The translations under genes and the position numbers were made by a program. Below, one piece after another: positions 11,250-55,854 of a stretch of DNA of 64,000 nucleotides (the stretch's first letter is position 1; each line of letters begins with the position of its first letter). The notes under the pieces are model-generated. The model did no database searches and was not told the origin of the DNA. It saw only the letters and a program-made list of their open reading frames with translations. The DNA is from Candidatus Enterousia sp. (GTDB lineage: Bacteria; Pseudomonadota; Alphaproteobacteria; Rs-D84): positions 74,533-138,532 of the forward strand of contig JAZQCG010000002.1 of the NCBI GenBank assembly GCA_045546155.1, given 5' to 3'.

Positions 11250-12756
<1,507 letters not shown>

Positions 12757-12831
12757 TTTTTTTGATTTTTACTGCTTTCTCTGCTAGAATTTTTCTACGA
12801 ACAAAACCAAAAACAGAAGGAGAAGTACACA

Positions 12832-13455: not shown

Positions 13456-13457
13456 TC

Positions 13458-13490
13458 AAAAAATCCCGCAAACGCGGGATTTTTTATTTT
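13458..13490 (+). terminator. rho-independent terminator AATCCCGCAAACGCGGGATT plus T-run
   Basis: Seen in sequence. Confidence 0.7.
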
Positions 13491-24507: not shown

Positions 24508-24537
24508 AAAAATCCCGCAATTTGCGGGATTTTTTTA
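24508..24537. terminator. terminator AATCCCGCAATTTGCGGGATT
   Basis: Immediately downstream of the stop of the 24535..26460 gene. Confidence 0.65.
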
Positions 24538-26460
24538 CATATTATTCTTAAGCGCTAAATATATTTGTCCTAAATCGGTTTTTAACAGGGTTGCAGCCAA
24601 TTTGTCTGCGTTGTCGGCTTCGCGTGCGCCGTTCATAATTTTATCAAAGCTGCGGACAAATTGCGTTGCCTGGGAACGAAATACTGCATCTGATTTCAAC
24701 ATATTGCGAACTTGTTTCTTGTCGGCGGCACTCATCATTTTCGCCAGCCACTTGGAAAAGATTGTTTTGTCGCCGGCATGATACTTCTTTAATACGACAT
24801 CTGGTATATCTGCGCCGGTTGCGCGTGTTAAGTCTTGGGACTGTTCATGCAGCTTTTCAAACATCTTTTCGCTTTGTGCCAAGAAGTCCGAAGAACTTAT
24901 TTTTCCAAACGATTCCATCGGTGCGGTTTTTATTGCGTCCATTGGGGCGCTTGCACGCGCAACCATCATTTGTTTGTTTAATGTCTGCATAGTGTTTACC
25001 GCTTTGGCATAATCTGACATTAAATCAATCATCTGCTGGCGTGATGTGCCGGCCAAATCTTCCAGTTTGATTGCAGATTGTGACACCGCATCGGTTGATT
25101 CATCAACCGCGGCTTTCATAAGATTAACTTTCTCGGTCAATGATGCGACAATTTTTTCCAGTCTTTCACTGGTTTCGACTGAGTCCTTGCTTAAATCGGG
25201 CAGGGCCGCATAATACTTTTCAATTAATTCAGATAATGGCTGTAACTGTGCTGTTGTGTCATTAGACATTTTAATCAGGTTTTCCGATTGTCCCGACAGC
25301 TGTGTGTGTGCCGTATTCATTTCAATCAGTGTTTCGCGTACACCTGTTGCCATTGCCTTGACCGAGTCTGAAAATGCGTTTGCGGCCCCGCGCGTGTTTT
25401 CCAATGTAATGTTCGCAACCCCAGACACTGTTTTTAGTTCAGATACAACACCCGTGGCAAATTCTTTGATTTCGCCATCGAAATGCTTGGTCAGTGTGGC
25501 GATTTCGGTTGAAATCCCGCGAACTGCGCCTTCGGTTGCACTGGCTGATGCCATCAGTTTTTCAACTGCATCGGTTAATTTGCGGATTTGTTTATCTATT
25601 GATGATTCAGCCAGGCGTACTTGGCCACCGACAACATTGGCGGTATTGGTAAGTGTGTTCATTTGGCTGGTTAATTGCTTTTTTGATTGTTTGCTAAATG
25701 TATCCATTTTATCCAAGTATCCATCCAACAATCTGTCGTTGCGTATCATTATTTCTTCATAATTTGCAGCCGAACTTTTTACATTGCTAAAACCGTCTGC
25801 AGTCGATTGGGCCAGTTCTGAAATTTTGCCAATCATTGTTTCTGATTCTGTGGTCAGATTTTTCATCTGTTCGCTATTTTTGTTGAATTCACCCCCCAGA
25901 TGTTCCGACAGGTTTTCACTGGTCGCGACCCATGAATCGATTTGTGATTGTATCTGGCTGGTACGGTTTGTGGTTTCTTGTGTTGTGTTGTTAATTTCTG
26001 ATAATAACTGATTGACAGTATTGCTAAATTTATCGGTTGCATTTTCTACATCGTGCCACGTTTCAGACTCTACTACATTGTTCAAGCCACTGACAGTATT
26101 GTCCAAACGGCCAGACATATTGGCTATCTTTTTTGTTGCTTCATCCGCCAATGAAATCAGTTTTTCGTTCTGTTCATTTAATATGTTTTTCAATTCGTCT
26201 GCAGATGCAATTTGTGCGTTTAATGTGTCGCGCATTGTGGCAAAGCTGGATTCTATTTTGGAAATTTCATCATTTAAAATCGTGCTTAACACGCGACTGG
26301 CGTCGGCAATTTTAGCACGTTCTGGTCGTGTCATAATGGTCAGCAACGATTGCATAACCTTTTGCGATTTGCGTGACACAAAAAACAGTACGACTAATGT
26401 GATAAATAATAACGCGCCCAGGATGCCCGCACCCCAGACAAACAATTGATTGATTTCCAT
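24535..26460 (-). CDS. membrane-anchored long alpha-helical/coiled-coil protein (641 aa)
   Basis: N-terminal TM segment (WGAGILGALLFITLVVLFFV) followed by a low-complexity helical region rich in S/T/N/E/K. Confidence 0.5.
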   Translation of the reverse strand: MEINQLFVWGAGILGALLFITLVVLFFVSRKSQKVMQSLLTIMTRPERAKIADASRVLSTILNDEISKIESSFATMRDTLNAQIASADELKNILNEQNEKLISLADEATKKIANMSGRLDNTVSGLNNVVESETWHDVENATDKFSNTVNQLLSEINNTTQETTNRTSQIQSQIDSWVATSENLSEHLGGEFNKNSEQMKNLTTESETMIGKISELAQSTADGFSNVKSSAANYEEIMIRNDRLLDGYLDKMDTFSKQSKKQLTSQMNTLTNTANVVGGQVRLAESSIDKQIRKLTDAVEKLMASASATEGAVRGISTEIATLTKHFDGEIKEFATGVVSELKTVSGVANITLENTRGAANAFSDSVKAMATGVRETLIEMNTAHTQLSGQSENLIKMSNDTTAQLQPLSELIEKYYAALPDLSKDSVETSERLEKIVASLTEKVNLMKAAVDESTDAVSQSAIKLEDLAGTSRQQMIDLMSDYAKAVNTMQTLNKQMMVARASAPMDAIKTAPMESFGKISSSDFLAQSEKMFEKLHEQSQDLTRATGADIPDVVLKKYHAGDKTIFSKWLAKMMSAADKKQVRNMLKSDAVFRSQATQFVRSFDKIMNGAREADNADKLAATLLKTDLGQIYLALKNNM

Positions 26461-37477: not shown

Positions 37478-38002
37478 ATGGCTATATACGTATTCTCAGA
37501 TCCGCATTTTGATTCAGAAAAAATTATCGCAAATGGCGAACGTCCGTTTCGCAATGTTGCGCACATGAATAAAACACTGATTGAAAATTATAATTCAGTG
37601 GTTCAAAAGCAAGATATTTGTTATTGGCTGGGGGATGTTATGTATGATGCATCCAAAGAAAAAGTTGCAGCAATATTGCGCCAATTACGCGGTCGCAAAT
37701 ATTTAATCCTTGGGAATCACGATCGTGGACATTCTGAAAAATGGTGGCTAGATGCAGGGTTTGACAAGGTGTTTTCGCATCCTGTTTATATCGCAACGCA
37801 ATATATAATGCTATCGCACGAACCACTGGAAGAATTTGGCAAATCATATCCAATTGCAAATATTCATGGCCATATTCATATCCAAGACTATGACTTTAAA
37901 AATCATGACCAGTGCATAAATGTATCGGTGGAAAAGACAGGGTACAAGCCTGTTTTAATGCAAAATCCATTTATTAAAAAACTTCGCGAATTTAGCAAAT
38001 AA
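37478..38002 (+). CDS. calcineurin-like metallophosphoesterase
   Basis: DPHFD, GDVMYD, GNHD, HGHIH motifs. RBS AAGGGGGA. 3-nt gap after the AbiEii-like gene. Confidence 0.7.
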   Translation: MAIYVFSDPHFDSEKIIANGERPFRNVAHMNKTLIENYNSVVQKQDICYWLGDVMYDASKEKVAAILRQLRGRKYLILGNHDRGHSEKWWLDAGFDKVFSHPVYIATQYIMLSHEPLEEFGKSYPIANIHGHIHIQDYDFKNHDQCINVSVEKTGYKPVLMQNPFIKKLREFSK

Positions 38003-38007
38003 TTAAA

Positions 38008-38040
38008 AAAAATCCCCCAATCGGGGGAATTTTTTTTATT
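38008..38040. terminator. bidirectional terminator AATCCCCCAATCGGGGGAATT
   Basis: Seen in sequence. Confidence 0.65.
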
Positions 38041-38428
38041 TGTTTGTGTTCTTTTCTGCAGATGTTGCTGCCAAGTCTTCGACGATACGCGCCTTTTTAC
38101 CTGACAACCCACGCAAGAAGAACAACTTAGCACGACGTACTTTACCGATACGAACCTTTTCGATTTTTTCAATCGATGGGCTGTACAGTGGGAACTTGCG
38201 TTCTACACCAACACCGTATGATTCACGACGTACTGTAAAGGATGCATTATTGCCCATGCCGCCATCGCGTGCGATAACAACACCTTCGAAAACCTGGATA
38301 CGGAATTTGTCGCCGTCTTTAATTTTAACGTGAACCTTTAATGTATCCCCAGCTTTGAAGTTTGGGATTTTTTTGTCGCCCTTTAATTTTTCAATCTGGG
38401 CTGCTTCGATTTTTTTAATAATGCTCAT
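38036..38428 (-). CDS. rplS: 50S ribosomal protein L19
   Basis: [36 protein letters not shown]... Start trimmed from ORF 38584. Confidence 0.9.
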
Positions 38429-38430
38429 TT

Positions 38431-39111
38431 TTAGTTTTCCTTTATTAAGTCCGGTCGACGTTCTTTGGTTATGTCGACCGATTGTTGTTTCCGCCACCGT
38501 TCGATATTGCCGTGGTGACCGGACAGCAGGACTTCTGGGACACTTTGTCCACGCCATACTGACGGGCGGGTGTATAACGGCCATTCAAGCCCCCCGATTT
38601 CGAAACTTTCATTTTCTGTGGTGTCTGTTCCACCGTGAACTACATTATCCATCACGCGAACGCAACTGTCAACAAAAACTTGGGCTGCAATTTCGCCGCC
38701 GGACAATATATAATCACCAATGGATAATTCCATTATACCATATTGTTCAATAACGCGTTCATCAATTCCTTCGTACCGACCACACAGCAGGGTGTATGTT
38801 GCATCTTGGTCTGCGATAAATTCGCGTACAATTTTCTGGTTCAGTGTTTTGCCACGTGGTGAAAAATATATAATTTTCCCTGGGTTTTTAATAGAATCCA
38901 ATGCGTCGCCTAAAACATCTGGGCGCATAACCATGCCTGCGCCGCCGCCGAACTGGGTGTCATCAACGCTGCCGTAATTATTGATGGCAAAATCCCGAAT
39001 GTTAATCACATCATACGACCAAATTCCACGCTCCAATGCGCGACCAACCACGCCACCCGACAGTGTGCCTGGAAACATTTCTGGAAAAATAGTCAGTATA
39101 TTAAAGTGCAT
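38431..39111 (-). CDS. trmD: tRNA (guanine37-N1)-methyltransferase
   Basis: [13 protein letters not shown]...SPRG, the SPOUT knot region. Confidence 0.9.
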
Positions 39112-39112
39112 T

Positions 39113-39388
39113 TTAATGAACTTTCCCTTTTTCAGCATTAAATCGACAGTTTGTACACATACATTTTCCAATGTCGAACATAATGTTAACTGTTTCAACT
39201 GATGCTGCTTCTGCTAAACGAACAGCGATTTTATCTGGTTCGTTGGCCGGGGTAATAACCTTGGTGTCAATCCCAGCACGATATACCCGCACAACAGGAC
39301 AGCCTGCATCGTATTCCTTTTCTGGCATATTGCATTTTACAACAAACTTTTTACTAATTGCATCAAATTGAAATGTCTTGTTTGGCAT
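39113..39388 (-). CDS. small Cys-containing hypothetical protein inserted between rimM and trmD
   Basis: 91 aa with Cys pairs (KC..GCP, CMCTNC). 1-nt gap to the trmD start. Confidence 0.4.
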   Translation of the reverse strand: MPNKTFQFDAISKKFVVKCNMPEKEYDAGCPVVRVYRAGIDTKVITPANEPDKIAVRLAEAASVETVNIMFDIGKCMCTNCRFNAEKGKVH

Positions 39389-39397
39389 AATTAATCC

Positions 39398-39862
39398 TTA
39401 GTTTACGTATATAATTTTTGCATCCATATCAACGTTTGCGCCAACAAATGATACCATGTCGCCATTTTCCAGCTCTAAAATATCACCTGCGCCATAGTTT
39501 TGTATGCATGCCACGCGCCCAATAATATTGCCACGCTGATTCACGGTCATTCCGATTAAATCAGTCTGGTAATATTCTTGTTCGTCCAGTTTTGGTAAAT
39601 CTTCGCGCCCAATAAACAATTCCGTTCCACGCAGTGTTTCTGCAGCATTTCGGTCATCAAAGCCGTTTACCTTGGCGATAATGATGGTTGAGTTTGGAAT
39701 AACGCGTACAAACCTAAAATCTTTGGATGTAAAACGATCGGAAATCACGTTAAATTTTTTAAAGTCCGATGGTGTATCAGAATATGTCTGAATACGAACT
39801 TCGCCCCGAATTCCCTGGGGGGCAACAATTTTTCCAACCAAGATTTTTTCGTTATTTTTCAT
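39398..39862 (-). CDS. rimM: 16S rRNA processing protein RimM
   Basis: ILVGKIVAPQGIRGEVRI... (PRC barrel). Confidence 0.85.
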   Translation of the reverse strand: MKNNEKILVGKIVAPQGIRGEVRIQTYSDTPSDFKKFNVISDRFTSKDFRFVRVIPNSTIIIAKVNGFDDRNAAETLRGTELFIGREDLPKLDEQEYYQTDLIGMTVNQRGNIIGRVACIQNYGAGDILELENGDMVSFVGANVDMDAKIIYVN

Positions 39863-40184
39863 TTTGTTTTAATTGTTTGATTATATTTTCATAACGTATT
39901 TTTCGAATACACTGTACCTCAGACGTCAGTGGGCATTCGTTACCACTGTCCGATGTAACCATAATACAGTTCATCTTATGTGTGGCCATATAGTCAACCG
40001 CATCACGCCAAGAAGTAAAACGCCAGTCTTTTTGTCTGCAATATGTACCGTCGTACGGACAATCAAATGCCGAACTTGCGCGTCCGTCTTTGTGCAAAGT
40101 GGGTCTCATTATAAACTTTCGTTCATCTGCAAGGCTGCCACCACTAAGCATCATATCTGGATTAACTAATTTATATTCTGACAT
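39852..40184 (-). CDS. small Cys-containing hypothetical protein (110 aa) within the rpsP-rimM interval
   Basis: ORF overlaps the rimM start by 11 nt. Confidence 0.4.
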   Translation of the reverse strand: MSEYKLVNPDMMLSGGSLADERKFIMRPTLHKDGRASSAFDCPYDGTYCRQKDWRFTSWRDAVDYMATHKMNCIMVTSDSGNECPLTSEVQCIRKIRYENIIKQLKQNEK

Positions 40185-40209
40185 AATCTTATTCCAGTCT
40201 GATTACAGA

Positions 40210-40428
40210 TTATCTTTGTTTTTGCAGTTGTTTTTCTTTGTGTTCGCGTAATTTTATGCAATCGCTTGCATATGCAGGGCACAATCCACCGGTTAAAAAT
40301 ACAACTGGTCTGTTTTCATGCATCGCTTCATACATCTGTCGATAAAACTCTTCGCTACGCTCTGTCTGGGTACATTCCAAATCATTTGCGCTTGGGCATC
40401 TGTCACCAATACACCAACTCTTTACCAT
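40210..40428 (-). CDS. small Cys-rich hypothetical protein (72 aa; possible Zn ribbon)
   Basis: C.GDRCP...EC...GGLCP....DC. Confidence 0.4.
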   Translation of the reverse strand: MVKSWCIGDRCPSANDLECTQTERSEEFYRQMYEAMHENRPVVFLTGGLCPAYASDCIKLREHKEKQLQKQR

Positions 40429-40432
40429 GATG

Positions 40433-40708
40433 CTACCTTTGTCGCTCGTATGTATGCGGTATTTTTAATAATTCCTGCTTTATTTGCATAAAGTAATCAT
40501 GCAAATTAATACCGTTTTCCATGGCAAAGGACATCATGTCATCAATATTGTCCAAATAACAATCGTGCATAAGGGTTTTAAGTTCTTTGTCTTGAAACCA
40601 TACCTCATGAAAAGCCCTGTGAATAAAGGCCTTGCACATATTAAGACGACTTATTGCTTTTGGTGCCTTTGCCATTGGATAAACGTTTCGGAATAAATTA
40701 TTCTGCAA
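40433..40708 (-). CDS. small hypothetical protein (91 aa) immediately downstream of rpsP
   Basis: ORF overlaps the rpsP stop by 11 nt. Confidence 0.4.
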   Translation of the reverse strand: MQNNLFRNVYPMAKAPKAISRLNMCKAFIHRAFHEVWFQDKELKTLMHDCYLDNIDDMMSFAMENGINLHDYFMQIKQELLKIPHTYERQR

Positions 40709-41147
40709 CCGCTTCGGTTGTTTCTTCGGCTGCTGGTGCAGCTGCTTCCGCTTCTGCAGCTGCCTTAGCGGCGGCTTCTGCTGCGGCTTTTTCTTCGGCG
40801 ATTTTTGCCAGCTTTTCAGCTTTGTCTTTAATCTTCATCTGTGTTTTTTCAGATTGCAGATGTTTCTTTGTCTGAACTGGAATCGCCTTTGCTTTTACCA
40901 AGCCAGCTTTGGCCAAGAATTTATGTACACGATCAGATGGCTGTGCACCTTTTGCCAACCATGCTTTTACTTCGTCAATTTTCAATGTAACGCGTTTGTC
41001 GCTGTCTTTGGCCTGCATTGGGTCATATTTACCAACAACTTCCAGAACATTACCGGAATTACGTGCATTGCGTGAATCTGTCACAACAATGTGATAGTAT
41101 GGGCGTTTTTTTGCACCAAAACGAGCCAAACGAATAACAGTTGCCAT
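40698..41147 (-). CDS. rpsP: 30S ribosomal protein S16 with Ala/Glu-rich C-terminal extension
   Basis: MATVIRLARFGAKKRPYYHIVV... Confidence 0.9.
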   Translation of the reverse strand: MATVIRLARFGAKKRPYYHIVVTDSRNARNSGNVLEVVGKYDPMQAKDSDKRVTLKIDEVKAWLAKGAQPSDRVHKFLAKAGLVKAKAIPVQTKKHLQSEKTQMKIKDKAEKLAKIAEEKAAAEAAAKAAAEAEAAAPAAEETTEAVAE

Positions 41148-41377
41148 AATTTACTCCTTTTTATTTATAACTGTTTTAACCACAAAGAAAACCGCCATCA
41201 AGGACGAAACTCGTCGGATGATGTACCACACGCATACTGCGAACTGGTGTTATAAAAATGGCAATCTTTGGGATTTGCGCGCCTATTATGAACCAAAAAA
41301 TCAAAAAAGTCAAATGGTTATTAAAAAAAACGCCACAATCCGAAAATAAATCCGACCACAAGGGTCGGCTATATTCT

Positions 41378-41451
41378 TGGTGCGGGCGAAGGGAATCGAA
41401 CCCTCGCCTAAAGCTTGGGAAGCTTTCGTTCTACCATTATACTACGCCCGC
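41378..41451 (-). tRNA. tRNA-Gly (anticodon CCC)
   Basis: 74 nt. Acceptor GCGGGCG/CGCCCGC. Anticodon loop TTCCCAA. T-arm GGTTCGATTCC. Terminator hairpin at 41351..41370. Confidence 0.8.
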
Positions 41452-41497
41452 GACGTATGGCGAAATATTATCTTATTTTGTCATCGATGTCCAGACT

Positions 41498-43231
41498 TTA
41501 TTTCTGGCGTCCACGCAACATATCTGCCAATGGTTCTACGATATAAGAATTACGCTGTTTATCAACATTGGCTAATTTCGTCCCCAGTATTTCCAATTGT
41601 GGCGACCATACTGCATATTTTTCAATATACTGACGTGCCATTTCTGGATTTTTTGACAACTGAATATCAATCACATCGCGCAACATTTTTTTACCACGTG
41701 CGACAACTGCATCAAAATCTATGACTAAACGATTTGATGAATCCAGACGAATTGCACCACACTCAAATAACATATTATGTTGCATAATATTGCGTTTTGC
41801 ATGGGCGCGACTAAAATTTGCACCCGGATATAAATAAGCAATCAACCATGATGTAATCAGCTCTTGTTTTTGATTTGGTGTAAAGAATCCAGCACGCACC
41901 AATTCGTCTAGCATCGCAATCGAGCCTGCATCTGCCTTGTGTTCTTCGATAATATTTTTATATTCGCCCAGTGCTTCCAGATCATCTTTTGGGCCTAACG
42001 TATGCATGTTTTCGTGCAAAATTGTAAAGTCGTGCAGGGCACGCACCGAAAAATATTTATGAAATTCCGGTGCCAGCAATGCATTAATCTTTTCATCCAT
42101 CCCATTGCCATATTTGCACTGGCGCATTTGTTTTAAATAGACTGTCCGATGACCACCGCCTGTTTGAACCGCTAATTTATCTGCATTAGGCAGGTTAAAC
42201 GCCAATGTTATCTGGCTACGATATGCCGCATTGTGTCCGCTAACCGATACGACATCAACGTCGACCATTGTTTGTTTTGTGTTTGTCCCCAGGACCTGTT
42301 TGTATTCATCTGCGCGTGGCATTTTGGATGCCAGCATGGGCAGATATTGTTTTATTTTTAACAAATAATCCGTGCCGGCCGTATCGACAATACCAACCGT
42401 CGCCCCCAAGTTGTCTTTTGCATATGGTGTAATTCCGCGCGCATCCAACATAGATTTTAATTTTGGATTTTGTAATACTGTCGGCGTCATCGCATCGTCA
42501 TAGCATTCGCGCCCCAGTGTAAATTCCAATGGCCCCGATTGAAGGGTTGCCCATTTTTTGTCGGCTTCACAATCAGCCCATGGCCAGTAATTCATCAATG
42601 CTGCGGATTGCAGTGTCAGATATTCTTTGAAATCGAAATTTTCCGTGCTTACAGCGGCGGCCTGTAATGCATGTGCTGCCGAACGAAAATCAAATTTGAA
42701 CGCATTTGTATAATCAACAGCTTTCAATTCATCGCCAAAACGCTTTACAATGGTGCGTTGATTTAATATTTCACGTACTTCTTCATCCTTATAGCCGCTT
42801 TCCAACATACGAATTAAAATGTCATGAAATTCATCAACTGATAAATTATATGGATACAAACCGCGTCCCAAACGAGGCTCAACATCATTGGTTAATGCAA
42901 CCGGTGCGCCTGATTTTTCATGTGCAAATATTCCGCGTTGCCCACGAAATAATTTCTGCGTTAATTTTATATCTTTAAAGGATTGGCGCGATTCTAGAAA
43001 CAGTTCAAAATCTAAATTATAAGGATGGTCCAGTTGTAACGCCACACGATCGATAATATCAGACGCGCGCACCAACCATTTTAATGCAGTTTTTTCCCGT
43101 TCGGGCAGGGCATTGTATTGTTCCGCATCAACACCCAACATAGTGTATGGTGTAAAGGCTTCGGGCGATGTACGCTGAACCAATTCATTATGATCATATG
43201 CAATTTTATACAAACGTCTTATCATTGACAT
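41498..43231 (-). CDS. HExxH zinc-metallopeptidase-like protein (577 aa; HENMH plus downstream EEHKAD, reminiscent of the M49/DPP-III zinc-binding pair)
   Basis: Motifs seen in sequence. Last gene of a five-gene coupled operon. Confidence 0.45.
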   Translation of the reverse strand: MSMIRRLYKIAYDHNELVQRTSPEAFTPYTMLGVDAEQYNALPEREKTALKWLVRASDIIDRVALQLDHPYNLDFELFLESRQSFKDIKLTQKLFRGQRGIFAHEKSGAPVALTNDVEPRLGRGLYPYNLSVDEFHDILIRMLESGYKDEEVREILNQRTIVKRFGDELKAVDYTNAFKFDFRSAAHALQAAAVSTENFDFKEYLTLQSAALMNYWPWADCEADKKWATLQSGPLEFTLGRECYDDAMTPTVLQNPKLKSMLDARGITPYAKDNLGATVGIVDTAGTDYLLKIKQYLPMLASKMPRADEYKQVLGTNTKQTMVDVDVVSVSGHNAAYRSQITLAFNLPNADKLAVQTGGGHRTVYLKQMRQCKYGNGMDEKINALLAPEFHKYFSVRALHDFTILHENMHTLGPKDDLEALGEYKNIIEEHKADAGSIAMLDELVRAGFFTPNQKQELITSWLIAYLYPGANFSRAHAKRNIMQHNMLFECGAIRLDSSNRLVIDFDAVVARGKKMLRDVIDIQLSKNPEMARQYIEKYAVWSPQLEILGTKLANVDKQRNSYIVEPLADMLRGRQK

Positions 43232-43243
43232 TTTTACGTTCCT

Positions 43244-44311
43244 TTATTTCTGATTTGCCTTTACAATGTCTGCGACATATTCTGTAATCCGGTCAACCGC
43301 ACCACGAAAATCAAATGCCATCGACAAAGGGCATTTGTCTGACACGTTTCCCGTACTGCAAATCACGCATTGTGCCCAATCCCCACTTTGCAATGCCGTA
43401 CATTGTTTCTTTGCCTTGGTTGCAATAAATTCTTGTTTTTTAAAACACGTTAAAAACGCTTCAATATCATTATATTTTAAATCCATCAAGAATTTAAACA
43501 CAGGACAAATTCGCGCCGCCAATTCTTTGTCTTGCATATATTCTTGATGTTTTTTTGCCTGACGCTGGGCAATACGTTCTTTGTTTGCCTGATAGTATAA
43601 TCGTTGTTGCGCCAGTCTCGCATCTTTGTTTGCATAATAGTTTGCACGGGTTCGCGCATTATACATATCTTTCTTTTTTTGATACGATTGCTTTTTGCGT
43701 TCTGCGACAACATTGGCGTTATTTTTGCGATATGCTGTATGATATGCTTTCTGTTCTGCCAAATGTTCTGAACGCCATTTTTTATAATACAAGCGTATTG
43801 TATCACGATGTTCTAAATAATAGTCCTTCATTTGTTCGGCCAGCCTGGCTTTATTTTCAACATAGTATTTATGGCGATATGTTTTGCGTTTGTTTCGTTT
43901 TGCATCTGCAACAGTCTTTAATTTTGTATGCATCGCGTCAATATTATACGGCATACAAGGCGTAGTGCTTTTAATCAAATTATTCATCGCCAACAGACGA
44001 TGGCTTGTTATCTTAAAGGGTAGTATTTCTGGCAACACCCGACACAGTCTGTCATCAATATGCACTGCACCCGACATAACATCCATAAATTGTTGGGATG
44101 TAAAAATATTTTGCATTGATTCTGCGACTAGAAAATCATCAAGTGTTTTTTGTTCACCAGAATCAAACAAAAACCATTCTACAAAAACATCAGCTAGTGT
44201 ATACACTGTATTAGGAACAGAACCACCCATATGCCACGACAGTGTCAATCCATCATCATATCGCAACGATGTATAACTTGTGTCTGAAAAAATTTGCGCC
44301 AATCCGTCCAT
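43244..44311 (-). CDS. Tyr-hendecad-repeat protein with C-terminal Cys-rich module ending ADIVKANQK (paralog of 44323..44931)
   Basis: About ten 11-residue repeats of YYxxNKxxxxx type, then CPVFKF...C..C...C. Confidence 0.5.
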   Translation of the reverse strand: MDGLAQIFSDTSYTSLRYDDGLTLSWHMGGSVPNTVYTLADVFVEWFLFDSGEQKTLDDFLVAESMQNIFTSQQFMDVMSGAVHIDDRLCRVLPEILPFKITSHRLLAMNNLIKSTTPCMPYNIDAMHTKLKTVADAKRNKRKTYRHKYYVENKARLAEQMKDYYLEHRDTIRLYYKKWRSEHLAEQKAYHTAYRKNNANVVAERKKQSYQKKKDMYNARTRANYYANKDARLAQQRLYYQANKERIAQRQAKKHQEYMQDKELAARICPVFKFLMDLKYNDIEAFLTCFKKQEFIATKAKKQCTALQSGDWAQCVICSTGNVSDKCPLSMAFDFRGAVDRITEYVADIVKANQK

Positions 44312-44322
44312 TTATTCACCAG

Positions 44323-44931
44323 TTATTTTTGATTTGCCATTACAATATCGGCGGCATGTTCACGGATTGTTGCGGCTGCATTTTCAAATTCAAACACGTG
44401 TGGCATCGGACATTTGCAAGCCATTTGTTTGCCCGACATTGAACAATCTTTGCAAATCGGACACATACTGTAATCCCCTGCAATAATCGCGGGACATTTT
44501 GCACGATGTGCCAGATTAGCATTTGGTTTGTATTTAGTCGTATATAATTCAATATTTTTCAGACGAATTTTATCAACAAATTTAAAAGCAGGGCACATAA
44601 CACGTGCGTTTTTTCTTTCTTGTTTTGCCTGGATGCTTTGTGCACGCAATTCATCGCGATGTTCGGTGTAATATTGTTTAAAGGATTCTTTGTGCTCGTG
44701 ATAATAAGCACGACATCTTGCGTTGATTCTGTCTTTGTTTTTTAAACAGTATTCCTGGATTCTGTCCTTGTACTTTTCGCGACTTTCACGTGCGTGCATG
44801 CGATTTTTTTCGCGCAGGGTATCCACATTGCGTGCATAATATTCACGCGCGGCTTGTTGTCGTGCTTCGCGGTTTTTTGCGTATCTTTCGCGGGCACGTT
44901 GACGACGTAAATCCAAGTTTTTATACGCCAT
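44323..44931 (-). CDS. Tyr-hendecad-repeat protein with C-terminal Cys-rich module ending ADIVMANQK (paralog)
   Basis: Repeats REYYARN / RAYYHEH / KQYYTEH, then CPAFKF...CPICKDC...CKCP. Confidence 0.5.
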   Translation of the reverse strand: MAYKNLDLRRQRARERYAKNREARQQAAREYYARNVDTLREKNRMHARESREKYKDRIQEYCLKNKDRINARCRAYYHEHKESFKQYYTEHRDELRAQSIQAKQERKNARVMCPAFKFVDKIRLKNIELYTTKYKPNANLAHRAKCPAIIAGDYSMCPICKDCSMSGKQMACKCPMPHVFEFENAAATIREHAADIVMANQK

Positions 44932-44936
44932 AATTT

Positions 44937-45785
44937 TTATCTCTTTTTTTGTAATAATTCATCATATGCTTGCGCAACGGTTTTATTATCCATTGCAGTT
45001 TTGTATTTGTAATTAAGTATAGCTTGGTTGGTGTTTGTGATTTCAAGGCAATCGCTGTCGCCAATATTTGGGTGCCCACTTGGGATATGCTGGGTTAAAT
45101 TATTATCTGCCGCACGTCCCAAACGTGACAACGCACCAATTTCATAAAACATAACGTTCAAATTATCGCCTTTAGACATAACAATAGTGCCATCTGTATC
45201 CATCTGACCGACATGTATTCCGCGCTGTCTAAGAATGTTTGCAAACTCTTGGTACTTATATTGTGATGCGGGTGTATTTAATCCAACAAAAGACACCGGA
45301 ATCGCCGCAGATAAATATTGACTGTTCATAATTTGATTAACAATGTTGGCCGCTGCGTTCAAGTTATCGTGATATTCATCAATAGATATATCAAGTGATA
45401 TTTGGCGGTCGTGTTTGTGCGCAACATCAGCCAGCGATTTTAGAATACTGCCCGCCAGTATTAATTTGTTGCCCCACAGCGCATTAGTCTTAAAGCAGGC
45501 CGACATGTCATTGTTAGCGCAGATATCCGCGACCATTGGGATGTATTTATGTTGCCCAATATAGTACGGTGCCATTGATTCGCCACCTGTAAACACAACG
45601 TAATCCCAAACCGGAATGCCCATATCTTTGTACTGACTGATATATTTTTCAATCGTATCAATGGGCATCAGGTTAAAGGCTTCTTTTGCGTGACTACGTT
45701 CGCAACAATGTGCACAACACAAATTACACCAATTTGTAATCTTAAGTGCCAAATTTACCCGTGGTATAACGTCTTGCCAAATCAT
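44937..45785 (-). CDS. radical SAM superfamily enzyme
   Basis: CxxxCxxC (ITNWCNLCCAHCC) plus FTGGES glycine-rich SAM motif. 282 aa. Confidence 0.65.
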   Translation of the reverse strand: MIWQDVIPRVNLALKITNWCNLCCAHCCERSHAKEAFNLMPIDTIEKYISQYKDMGIPVWDYVVFTGGESMAPYYIGQHKYIPMVADICANNDMSACFKTNALWGNKLILAGSILKSLADVAHKHDRQISLDISIDEYHDNLNAAANIVNQIMNSQYLSAAIPVSFVGLNTPASQYKYQEFANILRQRGIHVGQMDTDGTIVMSKGDNLNVMFYEIGALSRLGRAADNNLTQHIPSGHPNIGDSDCLEITNTNQAILNYKYKTAMDNKTVAQAYDELLQKKR

Positions 45786-46915
45786 TATTTTTCTACCGGT
45801 ATTTGCAACAACTGCTTTGGATAAATCAAGTCTGGGTTTTCAATATTATTGCGTTCTGCAATAATGCTGAACAAAATACCACGGCGCAGGAAATTACGCG
45901 CAATAATCCACAAGCAATCACCACGACGAACGGTATAGAAAGTATCGTCGTCGCCGGTCATCTCTGGCATCACAAAATCATGATTCACAGTTGCGACCGT
46001 GCGACCATCACCATCATGCAAGCGAACCGATAATTTGTATTCTTTGCCACTTTCCAGCTCGCCAATATCCGCACCCAAACCAAAGTGATGATGATCAGAT
46101 ACGCGTGCAAAGCCCATATATTTATCGTTCAATGACAAAGACACACGCAGACGTGGCAATGCATCACCGGTCACAACGATGCGACCATTATCCAGATAAT
46201 CAATCTTGGATACTGATAAATCACCATCGCGCAACATTGATGGCGATTGCAACAATGTACTGCCATCACGTGTCATCAACAATGACACAGAATTTTCTGC
46301 GCCGGCTTCGGACACATAAACAAAAACCTTGTCTTCGGATTTGATTGCAGGATCTGCACCCAACAAAGAAATTGTATAATTGCCGGCTTCAAATGCCTTG
46401 ACCGGTGCATATACGAATTCCCCAGCAGAATCAGTGCGTTCTGTTGCGACAATTTTACCGTTCACAACAATAGATATATTCTGGTGTGGTAACCAACGTC
46501 CCGCAATAATAATATGACCTTCTTTTTCAATGCGAACAATGTCAAACGATGGCGCGGTTGATGTATCAATGGCCTTAACCACTGGTTCTGGGATATTTGG
46601 CACAATCAACACACGTTGCGGGGCAGGTGTTCTAATAAACGCCACCCAAATTGCGATAAATATGACAACCAACGCGCACAGAATCGGAAACCAATATGCG
46701 CCAATTGTGCTGCGACGTTCGCGGGCGCGTTCGACATTTTTCTTTGCATTGGATGTTTTATCAGAATTCTTGCATGCAAACTTATCAATCTTTTTTAGAA
46801 AGTCGCGCGTAAAATTACGACGGTTTTTTAACCACGCATTTTGCTTTGCGATTGCATCATCAATCATAGAATCTGTAGACTGTTTTTTCTTTGAATTTTT
46901 ATCGTTTTTTGACAT
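45785..46915 (-). CDS. bitopic membrane protein with C-terminal LysM peptidoglycan-binding domain
   Basis: Basic N-terminus, one TM (YWFPILCALVVIFIAIWVAFI), and LysM (YTVRRGDCLWIIARNF...LIYPKQLLQIP). Stop overlaps the rSAM start as TAATG. Confidence 0.6.
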   Translation of the reverse strand: MSKNDKNSKKKQSTDSMIDDAIAKQNAWLKNRRNFTRDFLKKIDKFACKNSDKTSNAKKNVERARERRSTIGAYWFPILCALVVIFIAIWVAFIRTPAPQRVLIVPNIPEPVVKAIDTSTAPSFDIVRIEKEGHIIIAGRWLPHQNISIVVNGKIVATERTDSAGEFVYAPVKAFEAGNYTISLLGADPAIKSEDKVFVYVSEAGAENSVSLLMTRDGSTLLQSPSMLRDGDLSVSKIDYLDNGRIVVTGDALPRLRVSLSLNDKYMGFARVSDHHHFGLGADIGELESGKEYKLSVRLHDGDGRTVATVNHDFVMPEMTGDDDTFYTVRRGDCLWIIARNFLRRGILFSIIAERNNIENPDLIYPKQLLQIPVEK

Positions 46916-47019
46916 AGTTGCGCCCTTATATTTTTATTCTAGACAAAATGTAGCAAATTATATTTCTTTGTCAACTTATTTATGGTATAATTTACCCCAG
47001 AAATGTAAAGGATACAGAT

Positions 47020-48102
47020 ATGAAAAAGAAAAAAATTGGTATAATGACAACTGGTGGCGATTGCAGTGGACTGAACACCGTAATTCATCGTGTTATTCGC
47101 GGTGCAAAATTACGTAATTGGCGTGTAATTGGTATACTTGATGGCACAGACGGATTGTGTGACACACCACGCACAATTGAATTAACCGAAGACGTTTTGC
47201 CAATCGAAAACGCCAGACTTTCGGGCAGTTTTCTGCACAATGGTCACGCAGGCGCATTGAATTTTGAAACCGCCGTTGAACGTAACAAGGTTGCACAATT
47301 CAATAAACAACTGCGAAAATCATTGGCAGAATTAAAATTAGATGCGCTGATATTAGTTGGTGGCAATGGCAGTACTTCGCTTGCCTGGGCAAATCGTGAA
47401 ATTTATCAAGACCTGCAATTTATCTGTATTCCAAAAACAATTGATATGGACATGCCGTTAACTGACCGCACAATTGGATTTGATACCGCAGTTCAGCAAC
47501 TGACATCCTTCTGTGATCAATTAATGCTTACCGCGCGCAGTCATCATCGCTGGTTCGTGGTCCAGGCAATGGGACGCGATTGTGGCAATCTGGCATTAAA
47601 CGCCGGGGTTGCGACCGGCGCGACCGCGATATTGATTCCAGAAATCAAATTTAATATCGATGACTTAGTCGCACATATTAAAAACGCACCAACAGATTAT
47701 GGTATCATCATGGTGTCTGAGGGGATAACACTGCGCGGGCATTCTGGAAAACCCGCCGATATGATTTCGCGCAAGCTAACCGCGGCCGGAATCACAAACC
47801 GCACCGCATTCCCAGAACACACCCAACGAGCAGGGGACACAACCGCCTGTGACAGGATTCTAGCAACCCGGTTCGCAGATTGTGCATTACAGGCAATTGA
47901 AAACGGCGAAACATACGTTATTACAACATTGGATTGTGGCGACGTAAAAACCGTTTCTTTGTCAGAATTTGTTGCCGCCGGCGACAGTACATCTGATCCA
48001 AAAATACCAGGACTGTGCACCGCCAATGCATACGTAGACCCCGACGACCCATTACTGTCTGTTGCGCATGACATGGGTATCTATATTGGAAATTATAAAT
48101 AA
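47020..48102 (+). CDS. pfkA: 6-phosphofructokinase (PFK-A family; atypical GGNGS and PKTIDMD active-site motifs)
   Basis: MTTGGDCSGLN, MGRDCG and HTQRAG equivalents of E. coli PfkA motifs. Confidence 0.8.
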   Translation: MKKKKIGIMTTGGDCSGLNTVIHRVIRGAKLRNWRVIGILDGTDGLCDTPRTIELTEDVLPIENARLSGSFLHNGHAGALNFETAVERNKVAQFNKQLRKSLAELKLDALILVGGNGSTSLAWANREIYQDLQFICIPKTIDMDMPLTDRTIGFDTAVQQLTSFCDQLMLTARSHHRWFVVQAMGRDCGNLALNAGVATGATAILIPEIKFNIDDLVAHIKNAPTDYGIIMVSEGITLRGHSGKPADMISRKLTAAGITNRTAFPEHTQRAGDTTACDRILATRFADCALQAIENGETYVITTLDCGDVKTVSLSEFVAAGDSTSDPKIPGLCTANAYVDPDDPLLSVAHDMGIYIGNYK

Positions 48103-48103
48103 G

Positions 48104-48131
48104 AAAATCCCCCAAATTGGGGGATTTTAAT
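48104..48131. terminator. bidirectional terminator AATCCCCCAAATTGGGGGATT
   Basis: Seen in sequence. Confidence 0.6.
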
Positions 48132-48149
48132 AACAATCCAAAGAATTGA

Positions 48150-48761
48150 TTATTTCTTTGCTGCTGCGATTGCTGCGGCTTTTTTATCATCTTCTTCGGC
48201 TGGCATTTTACCGCCAATTGTTGCAAATGCCAATTCAGCCTGATGCAGACCTAATTCAACACCTGCTGGCAAAACCAAGTCTGTACCGTGAACCACGTCA
48301 CCAATTGTCAGTTCTGCCAAATCAATTGTGATTTTTTCTGGGATAACATCAACCAAACCACGCAGTGCAACTTTACGTACCGCAAAGTTCAATGTACCGC
48401 CCAATTTCAAGCCCTTGGATGTTTCAACATTGATAACTTCAACTGGAACAACCACGTTAACAGGCTTTTTAACGTCGATACGTTTAAAGTCCGCATGAAT
48501 AACCGCATCAGACACTGGATGATATTGAATATCCATCAACATTGCATCTTCTGTGCCGTTTGAAGTTGCGATTTGGAACAATTTTGTCCGCAAGCCTGGC
48601 TTTTTAACCAGCATTTCGAATTCACGACCGTTTAATTCGATTGCAACTGGAGCTTTCTTTTCACCATAGATAACAGCCGGAATATTTTTGTTATTGCGGA
48701 TGCTACGTGCGGCCCCCTTGCCAGCAACATTGCGAATTTCTGCATTAATATTAATTGCCAT
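48150..48761 (-). CDS. rplY: 50S ribosomal protein L25 / general stress protein Ctc
   Basis: MAININAEIRNVAGKGAARSIR... 203 aa with Ala/Lys tail. Confidence 0.85.
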   Translation of the reverse strand: MAININAEIRNVAGKGAARSIRNNKNIPAVIYGEKKAPVAIELNGREFEMLVKKPGLRTKLFQIATSNGTEDAMLMDIQYHPVSDAVIHADFKRIDVKKPVNVVVPVEVINVETSKGLKLGGTLNFAVRKVALRGLVDVIPEKITIDLAELTIGDVVHGTDLVLPAGVELGLHQAELAFATIGGKMPAEEDDKKAAAIAAAKK

Positions 48762-48863
48762 TTTTATATCCTTTTTATAGCATTTGTTTAACTTTGCCCA
48801 GCCTCCAAGGGTGCTGTGCGACGCGTATTATTACTTAAAATCTTTGAAAAATCAAGTGTTTTA

Positions 48864-49424
48864 TTATTTTTTACACAGAATCAAGAATCTTGCCCGGCCA
48901 TATGTTTTGTCACGCAGTATTTCCCATGCCGTTTCATCTGGGGCAATGGCGTTTTTTGTTTCTTGTTCCCAAATCAAAACAGTACCCGACCGCGCCACAC
49001 GTCCAATGCGACTCACCAATGCGCCCCCCAGTTCATATTCATCATATGGGGCATCTATAAATATTAAATCTGCATTGTGTGCAAATTTTTGCGCATTGCC
49101 AACTGCATCGGCTTGAAATATTGATGCGCGCGCATCCACACCCAACATCGCCAAATTATCACGCACCGTCCGCACAGATGTCGGCGCAACGTCTGTGAAC
49201 ACAACGCGCGCATTAGAATACCGTGACAAGCACTCTAATCCAAATGCCCCAGACCCCGCAAACGCATCCCAGACTGTAAATTCTGCGGATTTATCGATAA
49301 TTCCTGATTCCAGCATATTAAACAGCGCAATTCGCGCGCGATTCTGGGTCGGGCGCGCATCCGGCGGCAGGCGCAACTTGCGCCCTTTGTATTGTCCTGA
49401 AATAATTTGCAATTTTGAATCCAT
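48864..49424 (-). CDS. rsmD: 16S rRNA (guanine966-N2)-methyltransferase
   Basis: DAFAGSGAFGLE and DAPYD motifs. Confidence 0.8.
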   Translation of the reverse strand: MDSKLQIISGQYKGRKLRLPPDARPTQNRARIALFNMLESGIIDKSAEFTVWDAFAGSGAFGLECLSRYSNARVVFTDVAPTSVRTVRDNLAMLGVDARASIFQADAVGNAQKFAHNADLIFIDAPYDEYELGGALVSRIGRVARSGTVLIWEQETKNAIAPDETAWEILRDKTYGRARFLILCKK

Positions 49425-49441
49425 ACGTTAAAGTATATCGT

Positions 49442-49888
49442 ATGAAGTTTATGAAGCAAGCATTACTTTGCGCCCAGCGCGCATACAATCACGACGATGT
49501 TCCAATCGGCGCGGTTGTTGTTCGTGATGGCAAAATTATCGCCCGCGGTGAAAACCAGGTTCAATTAAAACAGAATCCAACCCTGCATGCGGAAATTGTC
49601 GCAATAAACCGCGCGTGCAAAAAACTGGGGCAAAAGTTTCTAGATGATTGCGATATTTACGTATCACTTGAACCATGTGCAATGTGCGCAACCGCAATTT
49701 CATTTGCGCGTATAAAAAATGTATATTTTGCCGCAACCGATGAAAAGGGCGGTGGCATCACATCAAATGCACGAATCTATGAAACGGACAAACACTTATG
49801 GAAGCCAACCGTACACCACATGCCCGAATATGCCGACGAATCCGCAAAAATGTTACGCGAATTCTTTGCACTACGTCGAAAAAAATAA
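49442..49888 (+). CDS. tadA: tRNA-specific adenosine deaminase
   Basis: HAE...PCAMC zinc-binding CDA motif. Start ambiguous (49415/49442/49451). Confidence 0.85.
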   Translation: MKFMKQALLCAQRAYNHDDVPIGAVVVRDGKIIARGENQVQLKQNPTLHAEIVAINRACKKLGQKFLDDCDIYVSLEPCAMCATAISFARIKNVYFAATDEKGGGITSNARIYETDKHLWKPTVHHMPEYADESAKMLREFFALRRKK

Positions 49889-52153: not shown

Positions 52154-53413
52154 TTATTTTTGTACGTTCAATATGCATTTCTCGTAATCTTCTGGGTCAG
52201 ATACCTTGGTCCAACATTGATTCACAACCGCAGAGGATTTTGTACGCATATCTTGCCCATATTGCATATCGCTTTTAGAAAGCGCTAACGCATCTTCACA
52301 TTGATTTTCTTTAACATCAAAAATCTTTCCGGTTGGGCATTTCACACACACGCCATATGCAACACCATTATCTGGACGCGCCACCCCAGATTTTTTGCTG
52401 TTTTCTGAAATACACTCAATGCACTCCAAAGAGTCTGGTGACACAAACCCATATAAATGATTTTTACATGCAATGACTAATGTAGTACCCGTGTCAATAA
52501 TTTGATGGACTTTTTCGTCATAGCCCGGTTTTGCCTTCAGTGTGTCATATAAACTCATTTGTTTTTCATCTGTTTTTTTTGTATACGCCCCACTTTCGTT
52601 TTGAACAACAACCCCAGCAACCTGATCCGAGTTATATTCTACACAATCTGTCTTGTCCTGATTTGGAACATAACCGTTTGTACACAACAATACTTCACCC
52701 GATGAATTGGATTTTATTTTTACAAAGATATGATCATCTTTGTTTTTACGTCTAGAACCACATACAACAGTTACCGGCGCGACCTTCACGCCATTTTGTG
52801 TAAATTTAGTCACACCTAATAAAATATCGGCTTCCTGGTTCTTGTACCATTTATGAGCATAGGCATACATTGCGCCCTTCAATTTGGCTTCCTCATAATC
52901 CTCATCCCCTTCGTGACCAGAAAAGGAATAAGCATTACTGCGCCAGTCGGATGCAGGAGATTTTGTAGAACCATCGGACGTTGCATCTGTGGTCTTGGTA
53001 CTACAGTCGGGACCAGTAAAACCATCTGCACAATAAACCTGACAATCCGTCACACCACCATTAGCTTTATAACGTGTGTGCGACATATTATCCTTATAAC
53101 CAGAGCTTGCCCAACATGAAATCTGAACTGGACGTAAACACGCACCATTTTTAAATCGTTTTTCTGCTACAATTGAATAAATTTTATCATATTCATAAGA
53201 CCCGTTCCCCAGTCCCGCCAATGCAGATTTCATAACAAAATCACCCGCATCAAACGTTGGCCGTGTTTTATTTCTAGAATCCGTATCAGCTCCACTACCG
53301 ATCGACTGTGACAATGTTTTAAATGCAGCCGACCAGGTGTCGCCAGCAGATGCCATAGCATACGACGGCATTAACAAAAAAAACGCAAACCCAATATATA
53401 ATGCTTTTTTCAT
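52154..53413 (-). CDS. secreted Cys-rich hypothetical protein (419 aa)
   Basis: Signal peptide MKKALYIGFAFFLLMPSYAMA. ATGA-type overlap with the upstream gene. Confidence 0.5.
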   Translation of the reverse strand: MKKALYIGFAFFLLMPSYAMASAGDTWSAAFKTLSQSIGSGADTDSRNKTRPTFDAGDFVMKSALAGLGNGSYEYDKIYSIVAEKRFKNGACLRPVQISCWASSGYKDNMSHTRYKANGGVTDCQVYCADGFTGPDCSTKTTDATSDGSTKSPASDWRSNAYSFSGHEGDEDYEEAKLKGAMYAYAHKWYKNQEADILLGVTKFTQNGVKVAPVTVVCGSRRKNKDDHIFVKIKSNSSGEVLLCTNGYVPNQDKTDCVEYNSDQVAGVVVQNESGAYTKKTDEKQMSLYDTLKAKPGYDEKVHQIIDTGTTLVIACKNHLYGFVSPDSLECIECISENSKKSGVARPDNGVAYGVCVKCPTGKIFDVKENQCEDALALSKSDMQYGQDMRTKSSAVVNQCWTKVSDPEDYEKCILNVQK

Positions 53414-53414
53414 A

Positions 53415-55793: not shown

Positions 55794-55854
55794 CATTGAA
55801 TCTTTCACTTTGCTTCTCTCTTAGGTCTATTCTACCATTTTTTTGGTATTTGAA

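Follow-up and report, generated by a model that had tools for sequence, protein, structure and literature searches.

A radical SAM enzyme and its Tyr-repeat/five-cysteine partner proteins form a recurrent, lineage-restricted pair within a composite five-gene block of Candidatus Enterousia

A block of five genes on the minus strand of a 64,000-nucleotide stretch of DNA from Candidatus Enterousia sp. (assembly GCA_045546155.1, contig JAZQCG010000002.1, positions 74,533 to 138,532; hereafter the window) had been proposed, in a sequence-only reading, to be a tightly coupled operon for an undescribed modification system. In order of transcription it encodes a LysM membrane protein (45785-46915), a radical S-adenosylmethionine (SAM) enzyme (44937-45785), two paralogous proteins referred to here as A (44323-44931) and B (43244-44311), and a HExxH peptidase-like protein, P5 (41498-43231). 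All five open reading frames (ORFs) were confirmed at these positions and on this strand, together with their junctions, which are a one-nucleotide TAATG overlap of the LysM and radical SAM genes at 45785 and subsequent gaps of 5, 11 and 12 nucleotides. Here we show that, as judged from gene content in related genomes, the block is a composite, with a predicted two-part module of the radical SAM enzyme and A/B proteins lying among neighbours in a variable spot between the LysM and M49 (P5) genes. The enzyme and A/B form a recurrent, lineage-restricted pair, and we put the probability that the enzyme has A/B as its client or substrate at roughly 0.4.

Both families are tiny. The radical SAM family comprises 50 clusters among 5.8 billion proteins and 45 loci among 185,579 species-representative genomes, and the profile of the A/B cysteine domain finds 68 representatives among 1.84 billion proteins. 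A/B genes were counted with domain hidden Markov models (HMMs) over all ORFs of the fetched loci (numbered from L001), and radical SAM genes followed by 1.5 kb of sequence or more were taken as assessable (n=46). An A/B gene starts between -31 and +14 nucleotides from the stop codon of the radical SAM gene in 18 of these 46 loci, and lies farther downstream on the same strand in a further four. Orthologues of A directly follow the enzyme gene in L001 and L011-L017, and homologues of B do so in many contexts. Tight pairs occur in at least six housekeeping contexts, which include the position after LysM, the order adk-radical SAM-B-corA, positions beside mltG/fabF, metK and a cold-shock gene (csp), and others. 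Among loci seeded from A/B, the enzyme gene is directly upstream in seven of nine assessable cases; the exceptions are L065 and L061, the latter having its A/B gene after a MacB-type pump operon, as is found where the radical SAM gene sits ~5 kb upstream. This repeated tight coupling in many genomes and contexts bears out the earlier suggestion that the enzyme is linked to Tyr-repeat/Cys proteins. Compact genomes have short intergenic gaps everywhere and half of the radical SAM genes are without A/B, as would be the case if the adjacency were inherited synteny with no functional link. We nevertheless regard this as very unlikely, because two families of tens of clusters among billions of proteins stand back to back on the same strand, often overlapping, in at least six contexts.

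A/B-positive loci are scattered over all major clades of the radical SAM tree, which suggests that the pairing is old, with repeated loss or relocation. One contig carries two radical SAM paralogues (L052, L027), of which the copy that follows LysM has no A/B and the other is accompanied by B. Ratios of nonsynonymous to synonymous substitution (dN/dS) of 0.08-0.23 (0.08-0.19 for the enzyme, 0.12-0.23 for A), along with conserved active-site residues, show that both the enzyme and the A/B genes are functional. Both families are restricted to Alphaproteobacteria of the gut and rumen that have reduced genomes (Ca. Enterousia, order Rs-D84). Close homologues are found in metagenome-assembled genomes (MAGs) of animal guts and rumen that bear the label Alphaproteobacteria or Candidatus Enterousia, and all but one of the radical SAM loci are titled Alpha-/Proteobacteria or Ca. 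Enterousia MAGs, the exception being labelled Muribaculaceae. The genomes of this order are mostly below 1 Mb and lack the tricarboxylic acid cycle and respiratory chains (PMC12306168).

Some loci carry further genes beside the pair. In one host clade the radical SAM and A/B genes flank a TolC/HlyD/MacB-type efflux operon (L030, L032, L033, L034, L037, L041 and L043, at ~9300-13900 in each, and L061, 145-3307; in L033 they precede it), an arrangement that may reflect either a link to transport or nothing more than synteny. Radical SAM enzymes usually receive their electrons from flavodoxin; a divergent flavodoxin gene adjoins the radical SAM-B pair in L057 (51-530), and in L065 (1169-1645) one adjoins B alone, with no radical SAM gene between.

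The enzyme, the first core part of the module, is a protein of 282 aa that belongs to the radical SAM superfamily. It scores 34.9 bits against Pfam PF04055 (gathering score 29.5), and the cluster site C20-x3-C24-x2-C27 and the GGE motif at residues 67-69, both picked out in the sequence-only reading, are invariant across the family. Its nearest characterised relative is EpeE/YydG of B. subtilis (epeXEPAB/yydFGHIJ), an enzyme of ribosomally synthesised and post-translationally modified peptide (RiPP) maturation, in keeping with the RiPP-enzyme affinity proposed earlier. The family profile matches the EpeE structures 8AI1/8AI6 (E 1.2e-12, profile positions 9-169), and the AlphaFold2 (AF2) model (pLDDT 81, pTM 0.82) has a partial TIM-barrel-like fold resembling that of radical SAM structures. 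The top nine Foldseek matches of the model are all EpeE (E ~1e-6, TM-scores 0.58/0.52, ~290 columns), followed by BlsE, viperin, SkfB and anSME. The EpeE-like core has in common with EpeE the motifs CNxxCxHCC, (F)TGGE, N(G/A)xWG and IS(V/Y)DE(F/Y)H, the last two pairing as NGFWG/TNALWG and ISYDEYH/ISVDEFH beyond the cluster site. EpeE is the best match in both sequence and fold, and each of the two enzymes is encoded beside its presumed polypeptide partner.

Against NCBIfam, every match of the enzyme lies far below cut-off, with 28.5 bits against a cut-off of 300 for TIGR04078 (EpeE/YydG), and the weak matches all fall in the SPASM/twitch-related group (YydG, AhbD, NirJ, MftC, SkfB, MoaA). Matches to the housekeeping families MoaA (21.9 bits, cut-off 231) and NrdG (18.3, cut-off 151.7) come from the N-terminal motif only, and QueE is not among the 25 of 35 matches listed. 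Pfam, PHROGs and PADLOC likewise assign the enzyme to nothing above cut-off other than the superfamily. With no NCBIfam model near its cut-off, the view that this is not a housekeeping enzyme of QueE, NrdG or PflA type stands. The accompanying claim that no que, nrd or pfl partner is encoded nearby holds as regards glycyl-radical enzymes, of which no gene was found among ten large window ORFs scanned against Pfam; que genes were not specifically searched for. A role as glycyl-radical activase was rejected, as A/B contains no conserved Gly loop, no glycyl-radical enzyme is encoded among those ten ORFs and the NrdG matches reflect the cluster motif only.

The enzyme departs from EpeE in the C-terminal part. 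In EpeE a second [4Fe-4S] cluster is bound in a T-SPASM domain, and Cys223 returns hydrogen to the C-alpha radical (PMC13012085). In the family described here, by contrast, there is a single conserved distal cysteine and no cluster motif: no match to Pfam SPASM or Fer4_12 reaches cut-off, and alignments of 13 and of ~49 homologues hold no conserved auxiliary-cluster cysteines. The sole conserved cysteine outside the cluster site is C246, carried by 46 of 49 homologues and placed by the model at the start of a predicted beta-hairpin. Given this single distal cysteine, the enzyme is predicted to have no auxiliary cluster. The SPASM, sactipeptide or ranthipeptide chemistry suggested by the sequence-only reading thus loses its basis, since the SPASM/twitch cysteines are missing and the thioether route is unsupported. 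As a separate observation, L011 holds a tandem duplicate of the enzyme gene (8001-8849 and 8852-9667), the second copy of which has diverged strongly and lacks C246 along with other signature residues.

A/B proteins make up the second core part of the module. Protein A (202 aa, pI 9.7) consists of basic, Tyr-rich helical repeats (residues 1-105) followed by a five-Cys domain (C113, C146, C157, C160, C174; Cys-domain HMM 3e-34). Alignments, domain HMMs and an all-alpha AF2 model (pLDDT 80) divide protein B (355 aa) into an acidic N-terminal helical domain (~30-115; HMM 4.7e-36) that is not present in A, a Tyr-repeat region (121-262) and a C-terminal five-Cys domain (C269, C304, C315, C318, C327; HMM 3.1e-42). 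The repeat region of B is of variable length, with a pI of 10.1, 12% Tyr and Tyr pairs every 11-16 residues. The five-Cys domain is helical and spans ~95 residues, the invariant cysteines being spaced C-x34-C-x10-C-x2-C-x8 in B (x13 in A). That A and B are paralogues with a common tail, as had been noticed, is confirmed by BLASTP (1e-22, 36% identity over 151 aa) and by the sequence ADIV[MK]ANQK that ends both.

Across the family A/B proteins span 200-580 aa, and the Cys domain is usually C-terminal, with two or three copies in a few proteins; tandem A/B genes, or proteins with two or three Cys domains, are found beside a single radical SAM gene. A and B have no family in Pfam, NCBIfam, PHROGs or PADLOC, as the description of the system as novel would imply, and no description of either the enzyme subfamily or the A/B family was found in the family libraries or the literature searched. 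Compared with the PDB, the Cys-domain profile gives sub-threshold, Zn-knuckle-like matches only (Nanos 0.05, L32 0.2).

Unusual members of the family include P0243 (264 aa), an A-type protein with KKYYQQNKEK repeats and a Cys domain that carries a C-terminal phosphopantetheine-binding (acyl carrier protein) domain (Pfam 3.9e-9), which may be genuinely fused to it or only appear so through an error of gene calling. L064 (3866-4972) encodes a 368-aa protein with a B-type N-domain and long basic repeats but no Cys domain, between dnaE and secA. The proposition that A/B never occurs without the radical SAM gene is contradicted by L065 and L064.

The case for A/B as the substrate is built on the peptide-modifying nature of the nearest relative, the tight coupling of the genes and the presence of multiple Cys domains per single enzyme gene. 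According to the mechanism we envisage, the enzyme would bind a [4Fe-4S] cluster through C20, C24 and C27, and SAM through GGE, and the 5'-deoxyadenosyl radical would abstract a hydrogen from an A/B residue, most likely one in or beside the C-terminal five-Cys domain. The thiol of C246 would then re-donate hydrogen, giving epimerisation or some other mass-neutral change, which is the most EpeE-like outcome, and not a SPASM-type thioether; the five A/B cysteines would more probably bind metal (Zn or Fe-S) than supply cross-links. Epimerisation-type chemistry is the simplest proposal for an enzyme that has one conserved thiol and lacks an auxiliary cluster. A more ambitious form of this reading, in which a twitch-less EpeE-like enzyme modifies whole folded A/B proteins of 200-580 aa (for example by L-to-D epimerisation, with C246 as donor) and its clients spread as recombining cassettes, is tentative and, on balance, somewhat doubtful.

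The general logic of a radical SAM enzyme with a genetically linked polypeptide partner is already known. Among SPASM/twitch enzymes, those with whole proteins or long precursors as substrates include anSME, which acts on sulfatases, QhpD, which acts on the gamma subunit of QHNDH, and the epimerases of proteusins with their long leaders. Like these SPASM/twitch protein modifiers, the enzyme described here is paired with a genetically linked protein (whose role as substrate is putative in our case), and anSME and SkfB are among the fold matches of its model; unlike them, it has no auxiliary-cluster cysteines, and A/B contains no known target motif such as C-x-P-x-R and is unrelated to known substrates. 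In a generic RiPP cluster a leader-and-core precursor undergoes modification, cleavage and export; what the loci here display is linkage of the enzyme and partner genes, and the candidate protease is not co-conserved. EpeE acts on a 49-aa peptide, whereas the partner here is a folded protein of 200-580 aa, and the EpeE operon includes a membrane protease and an ABC transporter, whereas no protease or transporter is co-conserved at the radical SAM loci. Two other kinds of target were considered and rejected: an anSME-type formylglycine site, because the A/B cysteines lie in C-P-x-F and C-x-A-L-Q contexts, not C-x-P-x-R, and a hidden short precursor peptide, because in loci without A/B the gaps after the radical SAM gene leave no room for one (40-100 nt in L018 and L019).

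Several observations weigh against A/B being the substrate. No A/B gene lies within 8 kb in 24 of the 46 radical SAM loci, yet every signature residue of the enzyme is kept there (24 such residues are essentially invariant across ~49 homologues, including those from loci without A/B), so that in these genomes the enzyme must have another substrate or A/B must be encoded elsewhere. Conversely, the B gene of L065 has no radical SAM gene directly upstream, and there is none within 4 kb of the N-domain-plus-repeat gene of L064. The C-terminal 120 aa of the enzyme, the profile of which gives chance matches only in the PDB, have no detectable sequence relative there, and the equivalence of C246 to C223 of EpeE is putative. 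A/B resembles a nucleic-acid- or metal-binding protein. Lastly, near-identical B genes, which are described below, lie beside radical SAM alleles that are only 68-70% identical, indicating that B and the enzyme do not co-vary closely.

It is rather unlikely, though less so than the other alternatives considered here, that A/B is an accessory of the enzyme, serving as a DNA- or RNA-binding regulator, a targeting subunit or a metal or Fe-S partner, and that the enzyme acts on some other common target, for example a small molecule or nucleic acid, or else a conserved protein or envelope precursor. The complete conservation of the enzyme signature in the 24 loci with no A/B nearby is in line with such a role, as is the retention of the enzyme across an order of bacteria with genomes below 1 Mb. 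Some SPASM/twitch-related enzymes do use small molecules, and BlsE and viperin are the next fold matches; the nearest relative, however, is a peptide modifier. Likewise the strongly basic repeats (pI 10.1) and the weak likeness of the Cys motif to the Zn knuckles of Nanos and L32 would fit a regulator or subunit, for which it would be unusual to have genes in tandem and proteins with two or three Cys domains each. In addition, A lacks the N-terminal domain, the likeliest helix-turn-helix (HTH) candidate, yet is the commonest partner in this clade, and the HTH resemblance has no sequence support.

Compared with L001, the encoded proteins of the window are 91% (PFK), 89% (LysM), 91% (P5) and 98% (S16) identical, against 68% for the radical SAM enzyme and 56% for A. 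In L015 and L016, which represent other species, nucleotide identity is 82-83% for PFK, LysM and A, 73-74% for the enzyme gene and 86-91% for P5, and it reaches 99.2-99.5% for B. The near-identical tract covers ~1.2 kb (43152-44356), reaching from the last 33 nucleotides of A across the whole of B into the first 80 nucleotides of P5, with 5 mismatches in 1,205 nucleotides relative to L015 and flanks that are 82-91% identical; dS between the two B genes is 0.005, compared with 0.2-1.7 for their neighbours. The contrast between B and its flanks shows, as read from these alignments, that B has recently been exchanged between species.

The borders of the cassette are also apparent. In L001 and L011-L013 no B gene separates A from P5, and in the genomes without B the tail of A runs straight into P5. 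In the window, B is bracketed by 27-nucleotide direct repeats on the minus strand, the left copy GATATTGTAATGGCAAATCAAAAATAA in the tail of A (44323-44349) and the right copy GACATTGTAAAGGCAAATCAGAAATAA in the tail of B (43244-43270), which agree at 24 of 27 positions and form a likely recombination junction. The tail differs elsewhere in the A/B family and is internal in multi-domain proteins. The identical tail, no conserved functional motif across the family, is therefore best read as a recombination junction, that is, as the repeat flanking a recently exchanged cassette. A/B genes on this evidence behave as exchangeable cassettes, B, a second copy of the partner, having arrived recently, as the alignments show, by recombination across the 27-nucleotide tail repeat and the start of P5. 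By their dN values, the enzyme and A evolve at 2-4 times the rate of the genes around them, still under purifying selection, and the radical SAM clades follow genomic context, which implies mostly vertical inheritance of the enzyme.

A further alternative is that the pair is a conflict or selfish cassette (defence, addiction or toxin-antitoxin), with the enzyme as effector and a HigA-like B as antidote, sensor or regulator, maintained by exchange between strains and not by a housekeeping role. Besides the near-identity of B across species, the faster evolution of the enzyme and A would fit this explanation, as would the variable presence of A/B among close relatives (in L018, P5 is 97% identical and A/B is missing) and the HNH endonuclease genes and duplicated tRNA-Gly fragments of the same hotspot (see below). 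The dN/dS values, on the other hand, are purifying and not diversifying, the radical SAM clades track genomic context, and dispensable cassettes are seldom retained in genomes below 1 Mb, among which the enzyme is nevertheless widespread. In higBA the enzyme comes first and the HTH-like protein second, an order that is met again here, and one domain of B has a fold resemblance to HigA/XRE-type HTH antitoxins. There is, however, no sequence-level signal for it: no HTH family was detected by Pfam on 26 N-domains (HTH_XRE included) or by profile against the PDB, the gene upstream encodes a radical SAM enzyme and not a RelE-fold toxin, and A has no HTH-like domain. No PADLOC family fits, and the only matches in that library are a weak one to pVip (0.0059, in the N-terminal cluster region) and weak coiled-coil matches, none of them a significant defence model. 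The enzyme profile finds no relative in the IMG/VR viral contigs, and protein A has no match in 50,697 phage genomes, which lends no support to an occurrence of KKYYxxNKE-type repeats in phage or giant-virus proteins. Taken together, a conflict role seems clearly unlikely.

The genes on either side of the module had also been included in the proposed modification system. P5 (577 aa) is predicted to be an M49 peptidase of the dipeptidyl peptidase III (DPP III) type, from an atypical HExxH subgroup. The HENMH and EEHKAD motifs reported for it are found at residues 406 and 429, and the guess that it is an M49 protein was a good one, as phmmer matches it to solved DPP III structures, 6EOM of Caldithrix abyssi (E 1.6e-25, residues 39-554) and 5ZUM of Corallococcus (6.6e-14). 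The zinc motifs are in register, HENMH with HEISH and EEHKAD with EECKAD of 6EOM. These two structures, with HEISH (6EOM) and HELMH (5ZUM), define an atypical pentapeptide-motif branch of M49 to which P5 is alike (PMC5805324, PMC9820243). P5 differs from the characterised enzymes in that no Pfam (Peptidase_M49 included) or NCBIfam family matches it at E<=1, PHROGs and PADLOC being likewise empty; evidently the Pfam and NCBIfam M49 models do not cover this subgroup. Its family has at least 1,583 homologues, and those at 44-49% identity lie in unrelated neighbourhoods with no LysM, radical SAM or A/B gene.

The LysM protein (376 aa) has a basic cytoplasmic N-terminus, one transmembrane segment, Ig-like repeats and a C-terminal LysM domain (PF01476; residues 327-373, E 2.2e-10, 40.8 bits against a gathering score of 20.9), so that this assignment, like that of the radical SAM enzyme, lies above the Pfam cut-off. 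The gap from the LysM gene to the radical SAM gene is -14 to +8 nucleotides in 14 of 47 loci and at most 600 nucleotides in 19 of 47, the additional loci having an HNH endonuclease gene or a small ORF inserted between. All loci with LysM upstream belong to one part of the radical SAM tree and one host clade, and LysM is absent from every other context. It is thus not a constant partner: comparison of the loci shows that the LysM protein is no apparent part of the module's function and belongs to the locus in one host clade, where its gene probably lends a promoter to the module.

P5, in turn, is present in 9 of 47 radical SAM loci, and in L002 (P5 at 70% identity) it follows LysM directly, with the radical SAM gene farther on, past a gene on the opposite strand. 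The idea that P5 is co-conserved with the module therefore has to be given up, and its distribution shows it to be, as far as gene content can tell, outside the module's function. Whether LysM and P5 were an ancestral pair split by insertion was considered and set aside, the position of P5 being too variable to say.

It follows that the five genes do not form one co-conserved system in which the Cys-rich tails of A/B are modified by the enzyme and then processed by the HExxH protein, with LysM linking the product to the envelope. This model can point to the tight junctions, to a single plausible promoter and terminator, and to the identical five-gene order in L015 and L016, in which the expectation of a gene order kept in relatives does hold; elsewhere neither P5 nor LysM is co-conserved with the enzyme. 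The B. subtilis epipeptide operon is a comparable combination of a radical SAM epimerase, a peptidase and an envelope-directed activity (PMC12871923, PMC7026026). DPP III enzymes, however, are cytosolic exopeptidases that remove N-terminal dipeptides, an activity unsuited to the trimming of a C-terminal tail (PMC5805324), and that tail is not conserved in the A/B family and is internal in its multi-domain members. The enzyme also has no SPASM cysteines for thioether chemistry. With distant members of the P5 family lacking such neighbours, LysM and P5 adjacent with the enzyme apart in L002, and LysM directly upstream in just 14 loci and P5 in 9, the five-gene model is largely refuted by lack of co-conservation, and we consider it highly improbable.

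The interval between the LysM and radical SAM genes shows signs of being an insertion hotspot, in that free-standing genes for HNH endonucleases of 146-190 aa (the L013 copy matches Pfam HNH at 1.7e-10) have been inserted there or just after the radical SAM gene (L013 6308-6751, L022 3432-3872, L023 7457-7987, L052 8844-9344 and L054 11699-12271). In L002 (12451-12760), L010 (8802-9180) and L054 (8297-8551), ORF translations beside the radical SAM gene repeat the peptide of the tRNA-Gly region, which suggests that these loci may hold duplicated or partial copies of tRNA-Gly, as expected at an integration site. The window itself has a single tRNA-Gly(CCC) on the minus strand, directly downstream of the block (41378-41451; ARAGORN, Rfam tRNA 68 bits). 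The same variable region beside the radical SAM gene encodes large, probably secreted Cys-rich proteins in L002 (9754-11121, 455 aa, with weak Ephrin-receptor-like and Listeria-Bacteroides repeat matches) and L007 (9089-10801, 570 aa).

The best-scoring candidate start of the transcription unit is a sigma-70-like match (TTGACA-16-TACATT with TG) found by consensus scan upstream of LysM on the minus strand (46974-46947), the number of such matches in the region being no higher than in shuffled sequence. By consensus match only, the best terminator-like hairpin lies past tRNA-Gly (41368-41352), and weaker ones are present within the five-gene block. No riboswitch, the SAM riboswitch included, was found in 38000-49500, and HMM searches revealed no second copy of the radical SAM or A/B family in the window.

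Elsewhere in the window, four small ORFs on the minus strand (40433-40708, 40210-40428, 39852-40184 and 39113-39388; 91, 72, 110 and 91 aa) are wedged in the rpsP-rimM-trmD-rplS operon; three are Cys-rich with C-P motifs and none has a significant Pfam family. The first is kept in five relatives, while the other three vary or are replaced between relatives. At E<=1e-5, Pfam assigns no family to three large ORFs at 53415-55808, 24535-26460 and 52154-53557 (797, 641 and 467 aa). A Lon-like ORF (8717-10474) is just 585 aa long, with substrate-binding, AAA and lid domains and no match to the proteolytic domain, and a separate 194-aa ORF lies downstream of it (7813-8397), so the Lon-like gene may be split or frameshifted.

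Our work illustrates how limited a guide to function close gene packing is: of the five 'coupled' genes, two are bystanders. Near-identical B genes shared by different species directly document recent gene flow within a lineage that is uncultured and has reduced genomes. Polypeptide-acting radical SAM enzymes are a main source of unusual protein chemistry, and to our knowledge almost all of those described use SPASM/twitch auxiliary clusters and short peptides. If the enzyme does modify A/B, both the known range of substrates and the minimal architecture of peptide-modifying radical SAM enzymes would be broadened, and the pair would flag a function that minimal symbionts cannot do without. Should the more ambitious form of this reading also prove true, it would represent a new enzyme-substrate class, in which radical SAM chemistry is applied to horizontally spreading whole proteins in metabolism-poor symbionts.

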